Part shown: piece by piece, positions 1,930 to 49,540 of the stretch
Layout of the letters: every line of letters begins with the position of its first letter
Numbering within the stretch: position 1 is the first letter of the stretch
Assembly (NCBI GenBank): GCA_049516875.1
Contig: JBEKSS010000008.1
Location: 34,433-98,432 of the forward strand
Reading direction: 5' to 3'
Source of the DNA: Candidatus Bathyarchaeia archaeon
Lineage (GTDB): Archaea; Thermoproteota; Bathyarchaeia; Bathyarchaeales; Bathycorpusculaceae
Length of the DNA stretch: 64,000 nt
Notes under the pieces: model-generated
What the model saw: the letters and a program-made list of their open reading frames with translations, nothing else
What the model was told of the DNA's origin: nothing
The model's database searches: none
Position numbers and translations under genes: made by a program

Positions 1930-2036
1930 CTTCTGGGAATTGAATCTGCGACCATTTTAGGAACACACATGCGCGATACTGTTAAGTTATTTGTCATGAG
2001 AATGTTGTCATGTTGGACTTCGTCTTTTTGAAAAGG

Positions 2037-2336
2037 TCAACATTTCGAAAGGGTAAACTGAATCCCGCACCAAGGGCACTGGATCGTTGCTTCTTCCATT
2101 TTAGGTTCATAACGAAGTAGATGACCACAAGAAGGATTTGGACATCTAATAACTTGTTCTCTGTGACTAGACGGGACGGTTCTACTAGACGGCACCGTTC
2201 TGCTAGAAGGAACCGTTCTACTGGAAGGAACTTTTCTGCTTGCAGGAACCTTTCGGTTCATTATTGACCAAACTCGTTGTTTTTTGAAAGGGAGAGAGAC
2301 CGCAAAGGAAAGCGTCCCTTTCAGCCTCCTCGCCAA
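2037..2336 (-). CDS. Small Zn-ribbon protein with (SSRTVP)n linker
   Basis: CPNPSC...CPWC motif. Start codon uncertain. Confidence 0.55.
   Translation of the reverse strand: MARRLKGTLSFAVSLPFKKQRVWSIMNRKVPASRKVPSSRTVPSSRTVPSSRTVPSSHREQVIRCPNPSCGHLLRYEPKMEEATIQCPWCGIQFTLSKC
2167..2256. repeat. Five degenerate 18-bp tandem repeats (coding)
   Basis: ctagacgggacggttcta-like units. Variation is largely at synonymous positions, supporting coding function. Confidence 0.85.
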
Positions 2337-2597
2337 CAGTTTTATCCCGTCTCTCCAAGCTTTCCTTTTCTTATTTTTGGGTTGAAAGATTGTTTGTTTG
2401 ATTGGCTAGGGACTGTTAGTGAGGCTTGACTGAAAAAGCCAAACCATCACCACCACAATGCGTCAGTAGATGTTTCGTGACTAATAAATCTACATCCAAT
2501 ATGATACTGTTAACTTAAGTTACCTGTTGCCTAGTTTGGGTTTGTCTAACGAAAATTTAATACGATACTGCCATAGACAAACTATTGGGGGAACGAA

Positions 2598-3026
2598 ATG
2601 AAAGATTATTGCGGCTTATGTGGAACAACCGTCCTTCATTACTCCGTTGGAGAACCAATAGATTGGGCAAAATATGACGGCGATGGAAGATACGGTATTA
2701 CAGGGAACTCTGTTGAGCTTAATCAACTTCCTGAGAAACTCCAATTAAGAATAAAACAAAAACGGGCAGGTATAGAGGAAGATGCACCAATCTGCCCTAA
2801 ATGTTACTCAAGAACTTTAGACGAGATATGGGTTGCTGAAAAAGCATTTTGTAAAGCATGTAGCACAACACTTGAAGATATTGGCTATTCAAGCGTACTA
2901 AATTCAACGGGGCATCATGTCGTAGACACCTGCTTAATGGGTTGTCCAAAATGCAGGCTTGTTTACTTCATACCTCCACGGCAAGTTAACCAAGTAAACG
3001 TCACATTGAGAAGGAGAAGATATTAA
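2598..3026 (+). CDS. Multi-CxxC zinc-finger protein
   Basis: Four CxxC motifs (CGLC, CPKC, CKAC, CPKC). GGGGG RBS-like tract upstream. Confidence 0.7.
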   Translation: MKDYCGLCGTTVLHYSVGEPIDWAKYDGDGRYGITGNSVELNQLPEKLQLRIKQKRAGIEEDAPICPKCYSRTLDEIWVAEKAFCKACSTTLEDIGYSSVLNSTGHHVVDTCLMGCPKCRLVYFIPPRQVNQVNVTLRRRRY

Positions 3027-3039
3027 CCACTCTCAAAAA

Positions 3040-3192
3040 CTATTTGACTTTCACTTTTTCCATGATTCTCTTTTCATATTCCTCTCGCGTCAAAACCCCT
3101 TTTTCCTCTAACAACTCAACAAGACTGTCAAGCATAGTATCCAAGAGGTCTATTTCCTCAGAAGGTTCCCGCTTGACTTTGCTTTTCTTCAT
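3040..3192 (-). CDS. 50-aa hypothetical protein (below ORF-track cutoff)
   Basis: MKKSKVKREPSEEIDLLDTMLDSLVELLEEKGVLTREEYEKRIMEKVKVK, with GGGAG RBS. Confidence 0.75.
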   Translation of the reverse strand: MKKSKVKREPSEEIDLLDTMLDSLVELLEEKGVLTREEYEKRIMEKVKVK

Positions 3193-3345
3193 GTTTTCTC
3201 CCTTTTGCAAGGTAACCCTGCTCTGACATCCAATTCAAGATTATCGTGCGGAGAGTGTCAGAGCGAGTTTGTCCAACTCTGCCAATCAATTCATCGTCTA
3301 GAGTCTTAACTACTCCATTGGAAGACTGACCAGAATTTTCTTCAT
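3157..3345 (-). pseudogene. CopG/RHH regulator with 1-nt frameshift
   Basis: MKKILVSLP / NGVVKTLDDELIGRVGQTRSDTLRTIILNWMSEQGYL is restored by one base near 3320. GGTGA RBS. Confidence 0.7.
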
Positions 3346-3480
3346 TTACTTATCACCTTCAATTCTTGTTTTTCCTCTTTCTGCTTCACGGTTCTAACAA
3401 GAAGTTCTTCCTTTTGCTTGATTGCTTGATCTATCAAGCCTTTCCAGTTGCTAGGCACTTCCATTCTTGCGGCTTGCGCG
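3342..3480 (-). pseudogene. Probable C-terminal gene remnant
   Basis: AQAARMEVPSNWKGLIDQAIKQKEELL...KVISK*. Its stop overlaps the RHH start (ATGA). It begins at a CGCGC tract. Confidence 0.45.
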
Positions 3481-3633
3481 GGAGTTTTTCAGCCTAGACT
3501 TTGGTGAGGTCTCACGCAATTATAGTGAACTGCGTAACCTTCCAGGAGTAGCTTCGTTGAGTCGAACATCTCTACGATACTGTAAACTTTTCTGTCATGG
3601 AAATGGTTTTTGCTCTTTGCGATTGGAATCATA

Positions 3634-4092
3634 TTAGCCAAGATAGTAGTTTTCCATCAGTTTATTTACGGTGAAAAGTTCTTTATTTACTTCGTAGAGG
3701 TCCTGCAGGTTGATTGGGTTATTTTCCATTTTCAATGCTACGAGAGGAGGCAATAGACAGATAGCCTCTTTGCTCTTATCTGTTAAGAGGCTCTCAAGTC
3801 TTTTTGCTTCTCTATATGCTATGCGTTTGTTTGCATATTTTCTTGAAGCCATAATGAAAGAATAGCACGCGATGAAAATAGCAGCAATGGAAATCAATGT
3901 GGGAGTCCATTGTGAGATTGGAACAAAACTTAAAGTAGAGATCGCAAAAAAAGAAACAAGCAATAACAGTGCTATGACAACTAAGATTTGAGGAAAGGCA
4001 GTAAAAATATCAGCATATGTGGAACGTTTGAACTTTTCATCCACGAATTTTGCTAAGTCTCTCATTTTGTCTTTGTCATTTTGTCCTGACAA
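3634..4092 (-). CDS. 2-TM membrane protein
   Basis: Two hydrophobic helices followed by a soluble tail. GAGG RBS. Confidence 0.75.
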   Translation of the reverse strand: MSGQNDKDKMRDLAKFVDEKFKRSTYADIFTAFPQILVVIALLLLVSFFAISTLSFVPISQWTPTLISIAAIFIACYSFIMASRKYANKRIAYREAKRLESLLTDKSKEAICLLPPLVALKMENNPINLQDLYEVNKELFTVNKLMENYYLG

Positions 4093-4198
4093 TTCTAAAC
4101 AACCTCAAACTGGTTTTGTTAAGACTTACTATTTTTCGTTTTAACATTGATTTTTGTTTGCGGGCAGGGCTGAACGCGGATGCTCATAAGGTTTGTCA

Positions 4199-4274
4199 TT
4201 TTTGGAAGGGGATTTGAACCCCCGAACTATCGCTCAGTAGGCGGTTGCTTGTGTCCGTACTAAGCTATCCATGC
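4199..4274 (-). ncRNA. Degenerate tRNA-like element (anticodon ACT, short variable loop, broken acceptor stem)
   Basis: GCATGGA TA GCTT AGTACGGACAC AAGC A ACCGC CTACTGA GCGAT AGTTC GGGGG TTCAAAT CCCCT TCCAAAA A. D, anticodon and T arms fold; only 4/7 acceptor pairs form. Confidence 0.7.
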
Positions 4275-4292
4275 CCTGCTTTGTTAGTTCTT

Positions 4293-5651
4293 TTATCTAG
4301 GTACTATGTCTTTCAGGTTTTTCAATGATGACCCGTCTAATCTCTGAAAACCCATTTGTGATTCTTGTTTCTCTATTGCTGTGATGATCTCCCTCATTTC
4401 ATGCTCTCTGCAAAGTAAATAGTGTTCTCTAGCTCTCCTGTTGTATTCTATAAAATCATTTGTAGGAATTGTTGGATTTTCTGTACATGATTTGCAGTAA
4501 CAAGGAATTAGGTTATCATTATTCTCAACTGTTTTCAAGAAAGTCTCCTTACTTTGCATGGTCATATTTTTCGGGTCATACCGATTCATAAATGGGCTGA
4601 TTTCCTTTTGGTCTTTTCTTCTATCCTCACGATCTAAGTTGAACCCAGTCGATACTATAGCAAAAGAAGAAAGTGCAGCAGGAAATGTCTGGTTTCCTGC
4701 TTCAAGCAATCCAAAAGCCTTGTTCTCAAGATGCTGAGAAACGAGGCTTAGCTCCATTAAGAAACTTTTGAATGCAATCCTTTCAAGAGCCATATTTTCG
4801 TCATTCAAGTTAAGATTTTTGAATTTGAATAGAGTCAATGGGCTTTCGCTATTGGAGACGTATTCCTTTATTGTTGACATCATGTGTTCGTTTCTGAGAA
4901 TTTGGGGTTTTATGATGAAGTAATCTGCGCATTCTCTTTTTTCTTGACTGAGAGATGGGCTAAATGCCCTGCTTTTTTCATTCATGAAAATGGCAACTTC
5001 AAGCAGATGCGGCGATGTTATCAGTGGTACAGGCGGAATTAATACGTCAGTTCTTGCCTTAAGTTCGACAGTGAATGTGTCTCGTATGAGTTTCATTCTC
5101 ATTTTCGCGTCCTTGTAAACACATGTCCAGAAGTTTGTATGTTGCGTATCTCTAAATTCACTCGCACTCATGATATCCTTTGACTTGCCCTTTAATCGTT
5201 CTTCTTCAAGGTTCTTACTTTTTTCCAAAAATCTCACAAGGTGGTCTCGAATAGTGCGCGAGACGTAAGGAGTGTTTGAAAGTCGCTCCATGTTTACGCT
5301 ATAGAACATGTATTCGAGAGCAGGGTCAACAAAAAGTATCTCTTCTCCTGACTGTGGCGTGAACTGTGTATCTAGAGTCGATTGGTCCACCACAAGGGAG
5401 AGTGTTGATTTCTTCATTGAAGAATGGAGTGTTCTTCCAGTATCAAGCAACCTTACTACATACGCAGAAAGTTGTCTGGGAGAATAGACTTGTCCAACTT
5501 TATGGTAAGCTTTCAAATCACTATCGCTTTTTAGACGTGGCGCGAAGGTCGGAGTTACTAGAGTTTTGCCGTTTATTTTCAAGTCTGTTGATTCAGAGAA
5601 TTTGCATTTTCTTTCACGGTAGTGGGTAACTTGGATTTGGGGTGCGCTCAT
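4293..5651 (-). CDS. Divergent tRNA-guanine transglycosylase (TGT/DpdA)-fold protein
   Basis: N-terminal LKINGKTLVTPTFAP (TGT-like TPxFxP). FVDP at the DSGG position. C-terminal CYCKSC...H zinc site. Confidence 0.6.
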   Translation of the reverse strand: MSAPQIQVTHYRERKCKFSESTDLKINGKTLVTPTFAPRLKSDSDLKAYHKVGQVYSPRQLSAYVVRLLDTGRTLHSSMKKSTLSLVVDQSTLDTQFTPQSGEEILFVDPALEYMFYSVNMERLSNTPYVSRTIRDHLVRFLEKSKNLEEERLKGKSKDIMSASEFRDTQHTNFWTCVYKDAKMRMKLIRDTFTVELKARTDVLIPPVPLITSPHLLEVAIFMNEKSRAFSPSLSQEKRECADYFIIKPQILRNEHMMSTIKEYVSNSESPLTLFKFKNLNLNDENMALERIAFKSFLMELSLVSQHLENKAFGLLEAGNQTFPAALSSFAIVSTGFNLDREDRRKDQKEISPFMNRYDPKNMTMQSKETFLKTVENNDNLIPCYCKSCTENPTIPTNDFIEYNRRAREHYLLCREHEMREIITAIEKQESQMGFQRLDGSSLKNLKDIVPR

Positions 5652-6145
5652 GGTTTATTCTCCATCTTGGTACCTGCTATTGTGATGAACTTTTGTAATC
5701 CATCCATGAACTGAAAGATATCATGACATCTAATCATTATGCCACCTCTTACCGTTGTTGAGCGTAGTTCATCTTGCTCCTTTTCTTGTATGAACACGAA
5801 ATGTCCTTCAGCATTTTCCAGTTTAAAAAACTCGTAGATTTTGTTTCCAATGGGTATCGATAAGCGATCTGTTGGGTGGATAAGCCGACCGTTTACGTAG
5901 TATATTGAACCTGCGCCTCGGTCACTTTTGTAGGCTTCACGTATCGCCACAAGGTATTCTAGGTGTTTTGTTACGGTAATTCTATTCAAGTTAGTTGCGT
6001 CTGCCATTTCTGATGCCATGATACCGTTCTCATTCCTTGAGAGTATGCTCTTGATTAGAGATCTAACATAGCTTTCTCTTTCAGTTGGTTTTAGTGCCAG
6101 TATTTCTTCTGAGGATAGCATCACGTTAGGTTTGTTTATTTCCAT
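5648..6145 (-). CDS. wHTH regulator fused to PUR/DUF3276-like single-strand nucleic-acid-binding domain
   Basis: GIMASEMADATNLNRITVTKHLEYL (HTH). KIYEFFKLENAEGHFVFIQEKE...GIMIRCHDIFQFMDGL (PUR-like pattern). ATGA overlap with the TGT-like gene. Confidence 0.65.
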   Translation of the reverse strand: MEINKPNVMLSSEEILALKPTERESYVRSLIKSILSRNENGIMASEMADATNLNRITVTKHLEYLVAIREAYKSDRGAGSIYYVNGRLIHPTDRLSIPIGNKIYEFFKLENAEGHFVFIQEKEQDELRSTTVRGGIMIRCHDIFQFMDGLQKFITIAGTKMENKP

Positions 6146-6193
6146 TTTTTCCCTTCACCATGATGTTGATTTACTTGTATGTACGTCATGGTA

Positions 6194-6241
6194 GTTATAC
6201 TTCATGTATAACATCTCCTTCGTAAACGTTTTAGTTTATAA
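6194..6241 (-). promoter_or_regulatory. Palindromic operator GTTATAC-N5-GTATAAC downstream of TATA box
   Basis: Perfect 7-bp inverted repeat at 6194-6212. TTATAAA on the minus strand at 6235-6241. Confidence 0.55.
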
Positions 6242-6645
6242 TGTTTAGGGGGTCTGAGTATTTATGGTTTTGGTATCTTGTTGGCGCGCGCAACTTAACT
6301 CAACAATACCGCACTAAGAAGCAGTAAAACTGCACTCATCTTTTCTAGGGTGTTTCTATGGTCTTATCGTTAGCGCGCGTTTTTCAAGAAAGAGAAATAG
6401 TCGCTTGTGGAAACCGTCTTCCGAGACGCTTAGCATCGCATTTCCCAAGGATTAAGGAAAATCATCTCTGTCGATTGTATCAGGAGCCGGTTCAGTAGTT
6501 CCATTAGCCATAGTTCCATTAGCCATCAAAGCATCGACAAAAATTAAACAAATGCGCTTTAGTATCTCCAAGCGCACGCGCGCGCTTTTTCTATTCGTTA
6601 TGTTCATTTTCTTTTGTCGAAGTGAGAAATAGTTGAAAATGTCAA

Positions 6646-7446
6646 TCAGATTGTACGTGAAATGTTGATTTGTTTCGGAAGAAAGACTTTAACTTCGGAC
6701 AAGCTATTAGGAACAACTATCTTGCCTGATGAAGAAAGCTTAGATACTACCGAAGCATGGTCTCCGTCACGTTTAAAATTGAAATGAATAGATTTGAGGT
6801 CCTTAAATTCAATTAAACTTATGGGATCGCGGGTCTGGTTTAACTGTCTCAGAACATCTCCCGATATAGTATTGGAGTGGGTAACTATCAATAACCTTGT
6901 CAATCTTCGTATCTGTTTATACCTTGAGAATTTGCTGCAATCGTGGTCCCATCTAGCTATATCATAATCCGATGTAAGAGTAGACTCCAAATCCATTTTC
7001 TCGGAAGGATTAATTACTCGGTGAAAAGCGATAGTATCTGGCTCATTTTTGCCACCAATGACCTCGGTTATGTAGCCCATGTCTTGAAACATTTCAGGTA
7101 CGATCCGTTTTTCAAAATAAGTACTATTGTCAACAACTAAAAAGCCAATAAATTCTTCATAATGGATCTGCCTACCTCTTTGACATAATCTAAAATTTCC
7201 CAGAGAAGGTATCGATTTCCTCTTTAGACCTCCCTTTAAAATGCCTTCGGGGACTGTGAATCTGAATTTAGCTTTTCTGTCCAATGCTGAGAAACGAGCA
7301 CCAGGCAAAAGTTTCTTTTCTTCCAATTTTTGACTGAACTCTGGAACCAATTCAACTTTAATAGTTATATCCGACGTAGGTATGCGAGAAAATTGTAATT
7401 TAAAAAAAAGTATCACGTCTTGATTAGGCGTGAGCCAATTATTCAC
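6646..7446 (-). CDS. PD-(D/E)xK restriction-endonuclease-like protein
   Basis: FEKRIVPEMFQDMGY...GGKNEPDTIAF...DLEST. Confidence 0.6.
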   Translation of the reverse strand: MNNWLTPNQDVILFFKLQFSRIPTSDITIKVELVPEFSQKLEEKKLLPGARFSALDRKAKFRFTVPEGILKGGLKRKSIPSLGNFRLCQRGRQIHYEEFIGFLVVDNSTYFEKRIVPEMFQDMGYITEVIGGKNEPDTIAFHRVINPSEKMDLESTLTSDYDIARWDHDCSKFSRYKQIRRLTRLLIVTHSNTISGDVLRQLNQTRDPISLIEFKDLKSIHFNFKRDGDHASVVSKLSSSGKIVVPNSLSEVKVFLPKQINISRTI

Positions 7447-7449
7447 TTT

Positions 7450-8634
7450 TTAAGCCTCTGATTCTTCGACCTCTTCAACTTCCTCAGGTAAGCCTGTTTC
7501 AGGTATTTTGCCTGACTCAATTAGCCATTTCTTGGCGTTTTCTTCGTCGATATCAGCCTTATTCTCATCGGCTATTTCAAGACATTCTCTGCAAAACTCC
7601 ATTATGGTTCCCGGAATACCTCTGGAGATTGAGTTTATGTATTGTATAGCATCGTTTGTAAATGGTTTGCAAGACTTCAACGGTGATTTTCTCGCCTTGT
7701 TCAGAATTTCTGTCACAAATTTTTCTGCATCCTGATTGACGAAGCTCTCTAATGTGAATGTTTCTCCTATCCGTCTAAGGAATGTACTCAATCCAGCCGC
7801 TCCTGTCCTCTTCATTTCAGTCTCATAAACAGGGCCGATTATTAGATCTAATGTCTCTGGCGTAAATCCTAAGCATAATATAATTGGAACAGTTTCGTTA
7901 GGAGCCTTACTTAACTCAACCTTATTTTGTTCAAATATCTTTTTTAGCATGGTTAGCATTTCAACTAACTTTCCTGACCCAGCTAACGCCAGTTCTTCTG
8001 CTTCGTCTAGACACAATACAAAACCAGCGTATCCCAGTAATCTCAGCAAACGACAAAAACTACTGATTGCTCTTAAAGCGATAATCGGTGAGTCTATTTT
8101 GCTGTACACACCGATTTTCTTCAAGTCTCTCAAGTCTACTTTTTCTCCCGTAAACCACAGCCATACAAGTGACTCGTTATCTTTTAGTGCCAAAAACGCA
8201 TTCTTGAAATCCCTATCGAAATCTCTAAGCAACTCTTCAGGTTTTTTCCTGGTTTTAGATATCAATGTATCAAATTGGCTTCTTAATATCGAAAAAATGT
8301 TCTTTCCAATCTCGCGAAATGCAGAATTGCATACATACTGAATATACTTAGAGGCAGTGGTACTTATGGTCGCATCAAACTTCACAGCAACCACTGATTT
8401 TTGATTTGCAAAGTTTTTTCCTGAAATGAGTTCATTAGTTAGGTTGTCAAGGGTAAAAGATTTCCCAACACCAACGGTGCCGCTCAAGAAGACAATGAAA
8501 CAAGCATTTGCATTAACCGCTTTCTCTACTTGTCCAAGGATTTGGCCCAGTTGCTTTTTACGCGCCTCGCCTACAAGCTTATGATCGTGTTTTTCGTAGA
8601 ATGGGTTAAATGACAGCTCATGGTATGTGGGCAA
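7450..8634 (-). CDS. AAA+ ATPase, BrxD/DUF2791-like
   Basis: Walker A GTVGVGKS. WFTGE...LLRLLGYAGFVLCLDEAE (Walker B). Confidence 0.75.
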   Translation of the reverse strand: MPTYHELSFNPFYEKHDHKLVGEARKKQLGQILGQVEKAVNANACFIVFLSGTVGVGKSFTLDNLTNELISGKNFANQKSVVAVKFDATISTTASKYIQYVCNSAFREIGKNIFSILRSQFDTLISKTRKKPEELLRDFDRDFKNAFLALKDNESLVWLWFTGEKVDLRDLKKIGVYSKIDSPIIALRAISSFCRLLRLLGYAGFVLCLDEAEELALAGSGKLVEMLTMLKKIFEQNKVELSKAPNETVPIILCLGFTPETLDLIIGPVYETEMKRTGAAGLSTFLRRIGETFTLESFVNQDAEKFVTEILNKARKSPLKSCKPFTNDAIQYINSISRGIPGTIMEFCRECLEIADENKADIDEENAKKWLIESGKIPETGLPEEVEEVEESEA

Positions 8635-9780
8635 TTAGTATCCCTCTTGCACTATCGAGATGTAATAGTAGTTCGTTTTACCTATAAAGATGCCCCACTT
8701 TTTAGAAAAAATAGCACGAGACAAGGATATCCGATACCCGCCGTACATGTAACCTATTTCAATGATTTTCTTATCGAAAACGTACCATGGAATATCAAGC
8801 CTTAGACAGACCTCATCACGAATTATCGGAATCGACACAAGTTTTCCTGAAAGCTTAGCAAATTTCAGCCACGAAGATTTCAATAGTTCAAAAAATCTGC
8901 TATTTGAAATCAGGTTAGCTTCGTTCCAAAAGGCAAGATTCAATACCCGACCGACTTCATCCTGATTAATATGATATTTCGCGATTTCTTTCTGAATTAG
9001 ACCCAGAGAGACAAAAACTGAGAGTAAACTTCTAACGATTGCTTTCTGATTATCCATAATGGTTCTTTTAATCTCTTGCTTGGATTTTGATTCAATCCAT
9101 GAAGAAAGGCGTAGGTTGTCGGTCCAATTTCTTATTACACCTTTCTTCTTTAAGTCATTAAGAATTTTCTCGCGGGCTATTCTTTGGACGGCCTTAGTTG
9201 ATACCTCGATCTTCACACCTTTTCTAAGTAGCGATTGAGTCAGTTTGTCGATATCAGCTTCTTTACCAATCTCCTGTATAGTAGATAGAATTTCCCAAAG
9301 TCGGATATCTCTCTCTACGACTATTCGTTTAAACAAGTCCAGTGCATTTTTGCTTTGACTTATCCGAGATACATGCTCTTCGTTTATGATTTTTAGTAGT
9401 TTTCTTCCAAAAAATGTGAGCATCTCATATTGGTCTTGCTGTGAGACTAGATCAAATTGAATACAAGTAGGTAAGGCGAGTCCGTAAATTTGAGTTATAA
9501 GATACTTCTTGTTTGCTTTTCTCTTCTCATATGTTTGTCCTTCATAGTCGAGCGTTTTCCAATTCCTGATCTTTGCATCCACTCCATTCTGTTTGAGAAA
9601 GGTAAGGAATGCTGAAGGCAGTTCTCTATTGACTTTTTCTATTCGTCTTATTCTTTTTTGTCCAATTGTTCTCAAAACAATAGGTATGTGCCAGTCAACG
9701 CTGCCAAAGGAACTCTTTAGATTGGGTATATATTTGAATTTGTTATTATTTGGTGAAGATAAATCTGGCCTCAGAATCAA
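8635..9780 (-). CDS. Hypothetical basic protein with probable winged-helix domains
   Basis: 381 aa, abuts the ATPase gene. C-terminal VSIPIIRDEVC...NYYYISI is wHTH-like. Confidence 0.65.
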   Translation of the reverse strand: MILRPDLSSPNNNKFKYIPNLKSSFGSVDWHIPIVLRTIGQKRIRRIEKVNRELPSAFLTFLKQNGVDAKIRNWKTLDYEGQTYEKRKANKKYLITQIYGLALPTCIQFDLVSQQDQYEMLTFFGRKLLKIINEEHVSRISQSKNALDLFKRIVVERDIRLWEILSTIQEIGKEADIDKLTQSLLRKGVKIEVSTKAVQRIAREKILNDLKKKGVIRNWTDNLRLSSWIESKSKQEIKRTIMDNQKAIVRSLLSVFVSLGLIQKEIAKYHINQDEVGRVLNLAFWNEANLISNSRFFELLKSSWLKFAKLSGKLVSIPIIRDEVCLRLDIPWYVFDKKIIEIGYMYGGYRISLSRAIFSKKWGIFIGKTNYYYISIVQEGY

Positions 9781-10088: not shown

Positions 10089-10913
10089 TCATGCCAAGAG
10101 TATCTCTGCGGAGGTATACAGATTTGGCCAATATCTCTCCCATGTTCTGAATCCTGTGCCATGATTGTGATGGGTGCGAGCATTGAACTCTATTTGCAGC
10201 CATCCTTCTTTGATGCCAGCTAAGAATCTGGACAAGTCTGCACCTTGAAGTAACTGGGTCTTCCCAATTCTCATTTTCTGCTTTACACCTTCAGCTAACG
10301 TTTCCATTGAAACGTAAACCATGTTTCTTATCTTTTGACGAACCTTATTCCCCAAACCATCAAACGTCCAATATGGCACGGGTCGGAGATCACCCAATCC
10401 CACACGCCTTTGAACTTCCTCAAGCCAACCGCGATACTCTATCCTACCCGGAACTTTGGCGCTGTCAAAGTGCAGCTCCACTCTCTTCAATTCATCATTG
10501 ATAGTAGCAATGAACCCGCGTTCCGAAAAACCAGCGGCGTCAATGTCGATTCTCAAGCTTCGTTCCATCGGACCGTATTTCGGAATCGGCCAGCCATAGT
10601 CAACTAGAAGTTTAGGGATTACTTTTCCTGGATAGGGTTCAAAGCGAAACAGACTGATCAACGAGTTGCTGGTCGTCCTGTGGGTCTTCAGCTCAAATTC
10701 GCCGTAATCCGCTATCGGTATATTATTTTCTGGTATATGCAAAAGGTCCTCAAGGGTATTGCCGAGTCCGCCATCTTTATCTTGCCTATGGCTTGTAAGA
10801 GTTATCCACCCTCTCTCACGTATTTCCGAAAGACATTGAACCAATTCGTCTCTGGTATAGACCAATTCTCGCCTTTCTGGTATTTTCCTAGACCCAAAGA
10901 CCCATCTGTCCAC
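10089..10913 (-). CDS. MvaI/BcnI-family restriction endonuclease
   Basis: GGLGNTLEDLLHIPENN..ADYGEFELKT...HNHGTGFR. Confidence 0.85.
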   Translation of the reverse strand: MDRWVFGSRKIPERRELVYTRDELVQCLSEIRERGWITLTSHRQDKDGGLGNTLEDLLHIPENNIPIADYGEFELKTHRTTSNSLISLFRFEPYPGKVIPKLLVDYGWPIPKYGPMERSLRIDIDAAGFSERGFIATINDELKRVELHFDSAKVPGRIEYRGWLEEVQRRVGLGDLRPVPYWTFDGLGNKVRQKIRNMVYVSMETLAEGVKQKMRIGKTQLLQGADLSRFLAGIKEGWLQIEFNARTHHNHGTGFRTWERYWPNLYTSAEILLA

Positions 10914-49464: not shown

Positions 49465-49540
49465 GCCGGGGTGGCCGAACCGTTCAGGCGGCGGCCTGCA
49501 GAGCCGCTATATATGGGTTCAACTCCCATCCCCGGCTCCA
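49465..49540 (+). tRNA. tRNA-Cys (GCA), intronless, CCA encoded
   Basis: GCCGGGG...GCGGC CTGCAGA GCCGC...GGTTCAACTCC...CCCCGGC T CCA. Confidence 0.95.

Follow-up and report, generated by a model that had tools for sequence, protein, structure and literature searches.

What does a protein resembling tRNA-guanine transglycosylase (TGT) do between a small regulator and a tRNA-like sequence, and do these neighbors work as one system? The question arises in a 64,000-nucleotide stretch (hereafter the window) of contig JBEKSS010000008.1 from a Candidatus Bathyarchaeia archaeon (assembly GCA_049516875.1), for which an initial annotation, made from the sequence alone, had proposed a four-part system comprising a regulator (F1), a divergent TGT-fold enzyme (F0), a tRNA-like RNA and a protein with two transmembrane segments (the 2-TM open reading frame, ORF). 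The four elements are indeed present and co-oriented on the minus strand, and the stop of F1 and the start of F0 overlap in ATGA (tcat on the plus strand, 5648-5651) behind a palindrome, as had been described. Throughout, loci are labeled L and genomes G; the window locus is L007 and its host genome G000. Our analysis establishes that F0 belongs to a new TGT-fold family, that F1 is its obligate winged helix-turn-helix (wHTH)-PUR-like neighbor, that the pair is cargo of IS6-type transposons, and that the tRNA-Arg-derived gene beside it is borne by mobile elements, with its loop under selection. The four-part system itself found no support, as there is no conserved membrane effector: ORF clustering and blastn recovered no homolog of the 2-TM ORF in 77 other loci nor elsewhere in the genome, and its Pfam and NCBIfam matches were all sub-threshold. 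We therefore discarded it as a membrane effector and place it outside any module, in the gap between a truncated tRNA and a transposase remnant.

F0 matched nothing in Pfam (E 0.01), PF01702 included, in NCBIfam or in PADLOC, and nine distant homologs were likewise without a Pfam match. An exhaustive search of 1.84 billion representatives returned 97 proteins of the family at E 0.001 or better, nearly all of 400-460 amino acids (aa) and amounting to 97 clusters at 50% identity. The 79 relatives found in a clustered protein collection are all unnamed or "hypothetical," Bathyarchaeota being the sole named organism, and a search of the ESM Atlas led to archaeal clusters only, also without names. 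A literature search that did not cover the supplementary family lists of PMC12839542 and PMC10164549 found no earlier description of the family or of the tRNA-like gene. Of 401 Bathyarchaeia species genomes just 11 have F0, a patchy distribution, and internal stops interrupt one of these copies; no viral contig encoding F0 was found. Nor did we find fused or longer forms, a weak negative; the candidate P0155 turned out to be a spurious repeat protein. The AlphaFold2 (AF2) model of F0, built on an alignment of 39 sequences, has a predicted local distance difference test (pLDDT) score of 86.8, and its top 50 Foldseek matches are all TGTs, the best at E 3.5e-8, in agreement with the fold that had been suspected. 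DpdA was absent among the matches listed in the fold searches. The model superimposes on archaeosine TGT (ArcTGT, 1iq8_A) with a VIA Z of 26.1 and a root-mean-square deviation (rmsd) of 3.3 Å over 321 residues, and on Zymomonas TGT with a VIA Z of 26.0; it consists of a TIM barrel and a C-terminal zinc subdomain (Z 25-26 to TGTs over ~320-330 residues) at an identity of just 8-11%, with no PUA or other C-terminal tRNA-binding domain. In the zinc motif, PCxCxxC...H, three residues (C386, C389, and H410) never vary among the 39 sequences, and at least 90% of these also keep C384. These ligands align to C279/C281/C284/H307 of ArcTGT with an hhalign probability of 89% (against 14 Bathyarchaeia ArcTGTs), and past the zinc motif default hhalign gave no sequence-profile link between F0 and TGT.

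Three active-site aspartates are invariant in TGT and DpdA alike (D95, D130, and D256 in DpdA), according to the available text of PMC10164549. The motifs TPTFAPR, FVDPALEY, and FAIVSTG, to which the initial annotation had drawn attention together with the zinc motif, are present and conserved in F0, and we mapped them onto ArcTGT, in strand order, with a permissive hhalign run of low confidence. In this alignment TPTFAPR pairs with TPLLLPV and LLEAG with LFGAG; the invariant D109 of FVDPALEY pairs with the Asp of TDSGAYQ, the general acid/base position on strand 3; and IVST pairs with FDSA, which puts V333, kept in at least 90% of the sequences, at the position of the nucleophile Asp on strand 8. 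As for the base-recognizing Asp, the ILDVP strand of ArcTGT falls on a helical, gapped part of F0, and the mapping by strand order gives P207. F0 thus has the TGT fold yet, by this alignment, departs from TGT in at least one defining residue, with V333 at the nucleophile position. The catalytic face, where the barrel strands have their C-terminal ends, carries the invariant residues R67, D70, D109, E113, K276, K278, and D359, together with E317, which at least 90% of the 39 sequences share. Because these residues are retained, we take F0 to be an enzyme with altered chemistry and not a dead scaffold.

F1 also lacks a match in Pfam, NCBIfam, and PADLOC. Its AF2 model (pLDDT 89.6) shows a winged helix followed by strands and a long helix, and its best PDB match in Foldseek is Borrelia Pur-alpha (3nm7_B; E 1.1e-3, TM-score 0.70, rmsd 2.9 Å over 74 residues), with wHTH repressors matched at E about 1e-2. 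The model is therefore compatible with the winged helix and PUR-like repeat that had been read from the sequence, and as no Foldseek match reached E 0.001 the wHTH/PUR label remains a weak one. The C-terminal domain of four strands and a helix weakly resembles the Borrelia protein, where the single repeat dimerizes, as that of F1 would have to do; F1 differs from Pur-alpha in having no Pfam match and in its additional N-terminal parts, a winged helix and a helix predicted to dock on the enzyme. We clustered all ORFs from 78 related loci and the window (79 in total) and found F1 directly upstream of F0 in 66 of the 66 loci with readable upstream DNA (66/79 overall). In 11 of the remaining 13 the contig begins inside F0 or less than 200 nt from it, and L040 and L052 carry a 5′-truncated F0. 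Prediction of the F1-F0 complex with both alignments gave a score of 0.80, the best of three controls scoring 0.00; such a score was attained by 58 of 80 solved complexes and by 2 of 110 mismatched pairs. The runs have at least 70% of their contacts in common, at a partner pLDDT of 81-83. In the predicted complex, residues 6-33 of F1 dock on F0 helices 182-190, 225-237, and 267-269, a lateral surface away from the active-site face, so that the contact looks adaptor-like rather than inhibitor-like. F1 probably binds F0, to judge from these models. The palindrome upstream of F1 is kept as GTTATACATGATGTATAAC in close relatives from the clade of the window, and other sequence stands there in clades with a divergent F1.

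The region from about 2503 to 6310 in the window is the cargo of a decayed IS6-family transposon, which the initial annotation had overlooked together with the truncation of the tRNA copy. Intact relatives encode a transposase of 301 aa (DDE_Tnp_IS240, E 2.7e-21) with an N-terminal zinc ribbon, accompanied by a ribbon-helix-helix (RHH)-like ORF and a 56-aa ORF; it lies divergently upstream of F1 in 19 loci with both flanks readable, all 19 of which have the tRNA-like gene. Whole units of 1.9-8 kb are flanked by 22-bp inverted repeats, GGTACTGTTAAGTTAAGTTACC and a variant, that hold a CTGTT motif, most with a GG tip, and that match 39 times at up to one mismatch in 445,533 nt, versus 0 in each of five shuffles. 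Target duplications of 8-9 bp were found in 9 of 11 elements, including a transposase-less F1-F0-tRNA cassette (L017) and the deaminase cassette of G379 described below. IS6 elements duplicate 8 bp of their target. According to the available text of PMC7986276, which names a single member with a passenger gene, their inverted repeats are short, end in GG, and contain cTGTt. The bathyarchaeal elements of 3-8 kb (L001, L002, L003, L010, L017, L020, L028, L076, L159, from metagenomes and genomes) resemble IS26 and IS240 in transposase, ends, and duplications, and differ in their size with cargo, the non-autonomous cassettes, the zinc ribbon of the transposase, and the two small ORFs; their cargo is variable and includes methylases, a ParA-like ATPase, and F1-F0. 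No inverted repeats were found directly around the transposase alone. The motif TCTTAAGGTTTGTGAC, conserved in the trailer past the tRNA, was considered as an element end and rejected, the 22-bp repeats further out being the true ends. Relatives of the transposase at 47-84% identity are encoded in 12 of the 401 genomes, most of which have neither F0 nor the tRNA-like gene; as for close copies, each of three genomes examined has a single one.

In the window just the last third of the transposase module is left (rve_3, E 2e-4); its nucleotide sequence is about 83% identical to that of intact modules, among them those of L001, L018, and L075. The module-upstream repeat matches the family repeat with two mismatches, and the same 22-bp repeat flanks 10 related elements. 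There is no target-site duplication around the window copy, and homology upstream of F1 breaks inside the intergenic promoter palindromes; these features and the transposase remnant indicate an element that is rearranged and immobile, in which F1 and F0 are still intact. GCGCGC-rich motifs stand at or near the break in backbone homology (6284-6291, 6374-6380, and 6578-6590), and similar ones follow F0 in L031 and L068. Between the two left-hand repeat copies there is a 99-aa ORF (2037-2336, minus strand) with VPSSRT repeats and a zinc-ribbon-like end.

The tRNA-like sequence starts at 4274, 18 nt past the TAA stop of F0 (4293-4295). It scored 33.7 bits with Rfam RF00005 (gathering score 29, E 1.9e-4) over model positions 4-67 only, full-length relatives scoring 53-58 bits; ARAGORN made no tRNA call on it, and a purpose-built covariance model (R1) gave 67 bits. 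Homology to these relatives stops at 4203, tRNA position 69 (blastn, 4203-4274), where the window reads TCCA followed by AAAATGAC versus TCCATGC-R-CCA in the relatives. The annotated cloverleaf is consequently incomplete, the 3′ acceptor strand, discriminator, and CCA being gone; its position past the F0 stop is as claimed. A 7-bp helix, GCAGGGC/GCCCTGC (4164-4170 and 4273-4279; fold z -2.6), encloses the truncated tRNA and a further 32 nt, and may be fortuitous or stand in for the lost acceptor stem.

We scanned with the covariance model the 69 loci in which the sequence runs 100 nt or more past the 3′ end of F0. A co-oriented tRNA-like gene lies just past the F0 stop in 36 of them (counting a partial copy in L068), at a distance of 6-60 nt, mostly 6-25 and about 60 in L075, so a tRNA-like RNA 3′ of the homologs, as foreseen, exists at roughly half of these loci. 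The anticodon is ACU in 29 loci and in the partial L068 copy, and GCU in two, and four copies have the 9-nt loop CCCAACCAA. The gene has a class I body, with loops of 9 and 8 nt in some copies, and most copies keep the cloverleaf, the T-loop, the D-loop GG, and an encoded CCA. Eleven of 19 stem pairs covary through compensatory changes while the loop stays constant as C-Y-A-C-U-A-A; C33 replaces U33 in 5 of 29 aligned copies. Those of L002 (7367-7442) and L024 (1416-1491) have a divergent acceptor stem, GAGAGUG, a D-loop without GG, a TGC T-loop, and no encoded CCA, and their elbow contacts seem to have changed together. Regarding the origin of the gene, we ran the model over 150 Bathyarchaeia genomes and fetched the 30 best loci, whose nearest canonical tRNAs were tRNA-Arg(CCU/UCU) in 22, Thr in 5, Ile in 2, and Arg(UCG) in 1. 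On the strength of these 22 matches the RNA is, by sequence, a derivative of tRNA-Arg(YCU) with a purine at position 34 as the main change. We ruled out that the gene is an integration (att) site, as the element carries the whole of it with both acceptor strands. In L003 (10398-10473) and L014 (2578-2653) the module is followed at 0.9-3 kb by a gene for tRNA-Cys(GCA), which in the window is 45 kb away (49465-49540); this may be coincidence or an insertion preference.

The tRNA-bearing F0 loci fall in three separate clades of an F0 tree built by a quick method, and where an element has more than one cargo operon, it is F0 that the tRNA-like gene comes after, in all 19 cases with an adjacent transposase. 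A fourth F0 lineage, in G118 (36% identical), has a different aberrant tRNA 6 nt past the F0 stop (L148:1413-1488), Thr-like, with an 8-nt anticodon loop, UUUGGUAA, and a T-arm matching the host tRNA-Thr(UGU); an IS6 transposase comes after it in the same orientation.

To our knowledge, TGT-fold enzymes are the sole base-exchange enzymes for nucleic acids. F0 is like bacterial TGT and ArcTGT (PF01702) in its TIM barrel and zinc subdomain, the CxCxxC...H motif, the TPxFxP-like motif of strand 1, the Asp of strand 3, and the adjoining tRNA gene. It differs in its low identity and lack of a PF01702 match, in having, by the low-confidence alignment, Val for the nucleophile Asp and no recognizable guanine-reading Asp, in always being paired with a separate wHTH-PUR protein, and in being mobile and patchy, not housekeeping. 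QTRT2 (QTRTD1), the eukaryotic non-catalytic TGT paralog, has the TGT fold and zinc site without the canonical set of catalytic Asp and acts in a heteromer with the catalytic TGT subunit. Unlike QTRT2, F0 has a small nucleic-acid-binding protein as its partner, and many acidic and basic residues on its active face are invariant. With DpdA, F0 shares a defense or mobile context and the need for a partner, DpdB there and F1 here. DpdA keeps all three catalytic Asp, according to the available text of PMC10164549, and its partner is a ParB-like ATPase, according to that of PMC12839542, which also places TGT homologs with different partners in other BREX-related systems. No preQ0 pathway was found for F0: in the host genome, which is 97% complete and encodes a canonical ArcTGT on contig C7, QueD (PF01242) was not found and QueC gave just partial matches of 25 and 21.5 bits, so that a supply of 7-deazaguanine is doubtful. 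Type III toxin-antitoxin systems such as AvcID, with an RNA antitoxin and a deaminase toxin, likewise join a protein effector to an adjacent small structured RNA in mobile or defense loci, as far as the available text on them goes, and one carrier of the tRNA-like gene is a dCTP-deaminase defense gene. They differ in that AvcI is not a tRNA, according to the available part of PMC10511110, and that the tRNA-like RNA is downstream, has a full tRNA shape, and occurs with unrelated proteins.

Our preferred reading, to which we give a probability of roughly 0.4, is that F1-F0 is a mobile conflict module, for defense or addiction, that acts on RNA and has the tRNA-like RNA as its ligand. F1 would probably repress the operon at the upstream palindrome; its PUR-type repeat would bind single strands and its N-terminal helix would dock on F0. 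F0, with its zinc site and the putative general acid/base D109 and without the canonical nucleophile Asp, would flip out a base in the anticodon loop of a tRNA-type RNA and remove or exchange it. The tRNA-Arg-derived gene with its purine 34 would be co-transcribed with the operon and excised by RNase P and RNase Z, and the RNA so released would serve as substrate or decoy. It is possible that F0 is a base-exchange enzyme with an RNA partner. Rather doubtful in our eyes is the narrower version, in which an F1-F0 heteromer would rewrite or remove purine 34 of an element-encoded, non-decoding tRNA-Arg derivative, or use that RNA as a decoy, as a module passed among archaeal transposons, integrative elements, and viruses. 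A coupling of enzyme and RNA is favored because tRNA is the ancestral substrate of the TGT fold, because four F0 lineages bear an aberrant purine-34 tRNA directly past the stop, and because the tRNA always follows F0 in multi-operon elements.

Several results weigh against this proposal, among them the occurrence of the RNA without the enzyme. A blastn search of the 401 genomes with the tRNA-like gene found full-length copies in five (G000, G233, G379, G108, and G302), and just two of these, G000 and G233, have F0. The copy of G379 lies 13 nt past a 215-aa ORF that itself comes after a dCTP-deaminase defense gene (PADLOC dCTPase, E 4.8e-55), in a 1.9-kb cassette (L193:5936-7843) with the same inverted repeats, the target duplication GGGTAAAC, and the ACU anticodon; G108 has a decayed version of this arrangement. 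In G302 the GCU version follows a 152-aa ORF in an integrase-borne element of 5.6 kb (L195:1281-6900), also carrying an HNH gene. The att repeat on either side of this element, 44 nt long and perfect, corresponds to the 3′ half of the host tRNA-Arg(GCG), a different tRNA from the tRNA-like gene, and falls within the 5′ portion of a gene for an archaeal integrase (Phage_integr_3). Finally, on a 36.5-kb IMG/VR viral contig (L196:2146-4061) an ACU copy stands 11 nt past a 608-aa protein of no known family, the C-terminus of which resembles, by eye in two translations, the 215-aa ORF of G379; by hhalign this protein has no relation to F0 or F1. Between L001 and L072, F0 is 26% and F1 38% identical, the transposase 93% and the tRNA with its trailer 89%, so that tRNA and trailer track the transposon backbone and not F0. 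The tRNA-like RNA is therefore not dedicated to F0, which the initial annotation had offered as one possibility. Coupling is further disfavored because 33 of the 69 F0 loci gave no model match (L026 among them has a truncated remnant by eye) and two whole F0 clades are without the gene. The window's own copy is probably a non-functional, 3′-truncated relic. The chemistry of F0 may differ from that of TGT or be absent, to judge from the low-confidence placement of V333 at the nucleophile position and the unrecognizable guanine-reading Asp, and the winged helix of F1 and the DpdA precedent would suit a DNA target equally well.

This last point leads to an alternative that we consider unlikely, namely that DNA is the target of F1-F0, with the tRNA-like gene riding along independently. 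The winged helix would bind the duplex and the PUR repeat the melted strands, targeting F0 to DNA for base exchange or excision, in a manner resembling DpdA with DpdB or a glycosylase-type restriction/modification enzyme, and a module of its own would be formed by the tRNA-like gene and trailer: an anti-defense decoy, a 3′-end processing and terminator unit, or a selfish tRNA-derived element behind any operon. The presence of the gene after unrelated genes in three kinds of mobile element, its tracking of the backbone, and its lack of a match at nearly half of the F0 loci fit this explanation well, as do the lateral, adaptor-like contact predicted for F1, the neighboring DNA methylases and restriction genes, and the DNA-modifying TGT homologs documented in defense systems in the available texts of PMC10164549 and PMC12839542. 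It is harder to reconcile with F0 itself, in which only the first of the three Asp invariant in TGT and DpdA is recognizable, and with a host lacking QueD and a convincing QueC. Neither are the aberrant tRNAs right past the stop in four F0 lineages easily explained by chance, and a mere processing signal would not need a loop conserved while its stems covary.

We regard as improbable that the pair resembles a type II toxin-antitoxin system, with F0 a toxin damaging cellular tRNA (e.g., tRNA-Arg YCU), F1 its antitoxin and autorepressor, and the tRNA-like RNA a decoy buffer. The gene order, in which a palindrome precedes the small DNA-binding protein and this overlaps the larger one by 4 nt (ATGA), the predicted F1-F0 binding, the patchy and mobile distribution with pseudogenized and truncated copies, the deep allelic divergence of F1-F0 within a conserved backbone, and a tRNA-like loop differing from the nearest canonical tRNA-Arg essentially at position 34 would all suit such a pair, but the predicted interface leaves the active-site face uncovered, the tRNA-like gene also accompanies non-TGT genes, and no toxin or antitoxin family was matched in PADLOC, Pfam, or NCBIfam. 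Very improbable, lastly, is that the tRNA-like gene is a working decoding tRNA, charged with Arg and either reading AGU or supplying the AGA-rich genes of the element after editing, with F0 unrelated to it. Most copies retain the tRNA features listed above, C35, U36, and A/G73, which we take to be Arg identity elements, resemble tRNA-Arg, and AGA is the commonest Arg codon in the genes of the element. Against this, there is no sign of AGY-to-Arg recoding in those genes: where Ser is conserved in the transposase alignment the codons include AGT (41) and AGC (22), and columns dominated by Arg or Lys show no systematic use of AGY, so that the idea of recoding by the ACU tRNA was dropped. The C33 copies, the 8- and 9-nt loops, and the copies without GG and TPsiC features also argue against decoding, and the host already has a class II tRNA-Ser(GCU) and an intron-bearing tRNA-Arg(UCU).

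Table 1. Features of the F1-F0 locus, with coordinates in the window.
Feature	Coordinates	Strand	Description
F1	5648..6145	-	165-aa ORF; winged-helix and PUR-like protein, predicted partner of F0
F0	4293..5651	-	452-aa ORF; TGT-fold protein with Zn motif and remodeled active site
Palindrome GTTATAC-TTCAT-GTATAAC	6194..6212	no strand	Upstream of F1; likely operator, as read from the sequence
tRNA-like gene	4203..4274	-	3′-truncated; tRNA positions 1-69, anticodon ACU
2-TM ORF	3634..4092	-	152 aa; within the element, unconserved
IS6-family transposase module remnant	3040..3566	-	C-terminal part of transposase, RHH-like small ORF, 56-aa ORF
Terminal inverted repeat, module-upstream end	6292..6310	-	AACTTAACTCAACAATACC on the plus strand; tip ...TACC at 6310; match position 6296
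Terminal inverted repeat, far end	2503..2524	+	GATACTGTTAACTTAAGTTACC; match position 2505
Second terminal repeat copy, type B	1975-1997		Match position 1977

The neighbors of F0 include DNA methylases, an MvaI/BcnI endonuclease, and a BrxC/D-like ATPase, and its surroundings in the window are a defense-island setting. A three-gene operon on the minus strand (6646-9780) encodes a BrxC/D-like AAA ATPase (PF10923, E 2e-8) between two proteins without a family, and adjoining it, also on the minus strand (10089-10913), is the gene for a restriction endonuclease of the MvaI/BcnI family (E 3e-37).

The F0 family keeps the fold and the zinc site of TGT while remodeling the catalytic residues, and since a nucleic-acid-binding subunit of its own always comes with it, its chemistry on tRNA or DNA may be new. 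The purine-34 tRNA-Arg derivative, common to three kinds of archaeal mobile element, is a candidate for a non-translational tRNA function, for instance in decoying, sensing, or processing. These proposals can be tested with two proteins and one 78-nt RNA. IS6-type transposons with defense cargo, for their part, represent one route by which conflict genes are exchanged among uncultured Bathyarchaeia.

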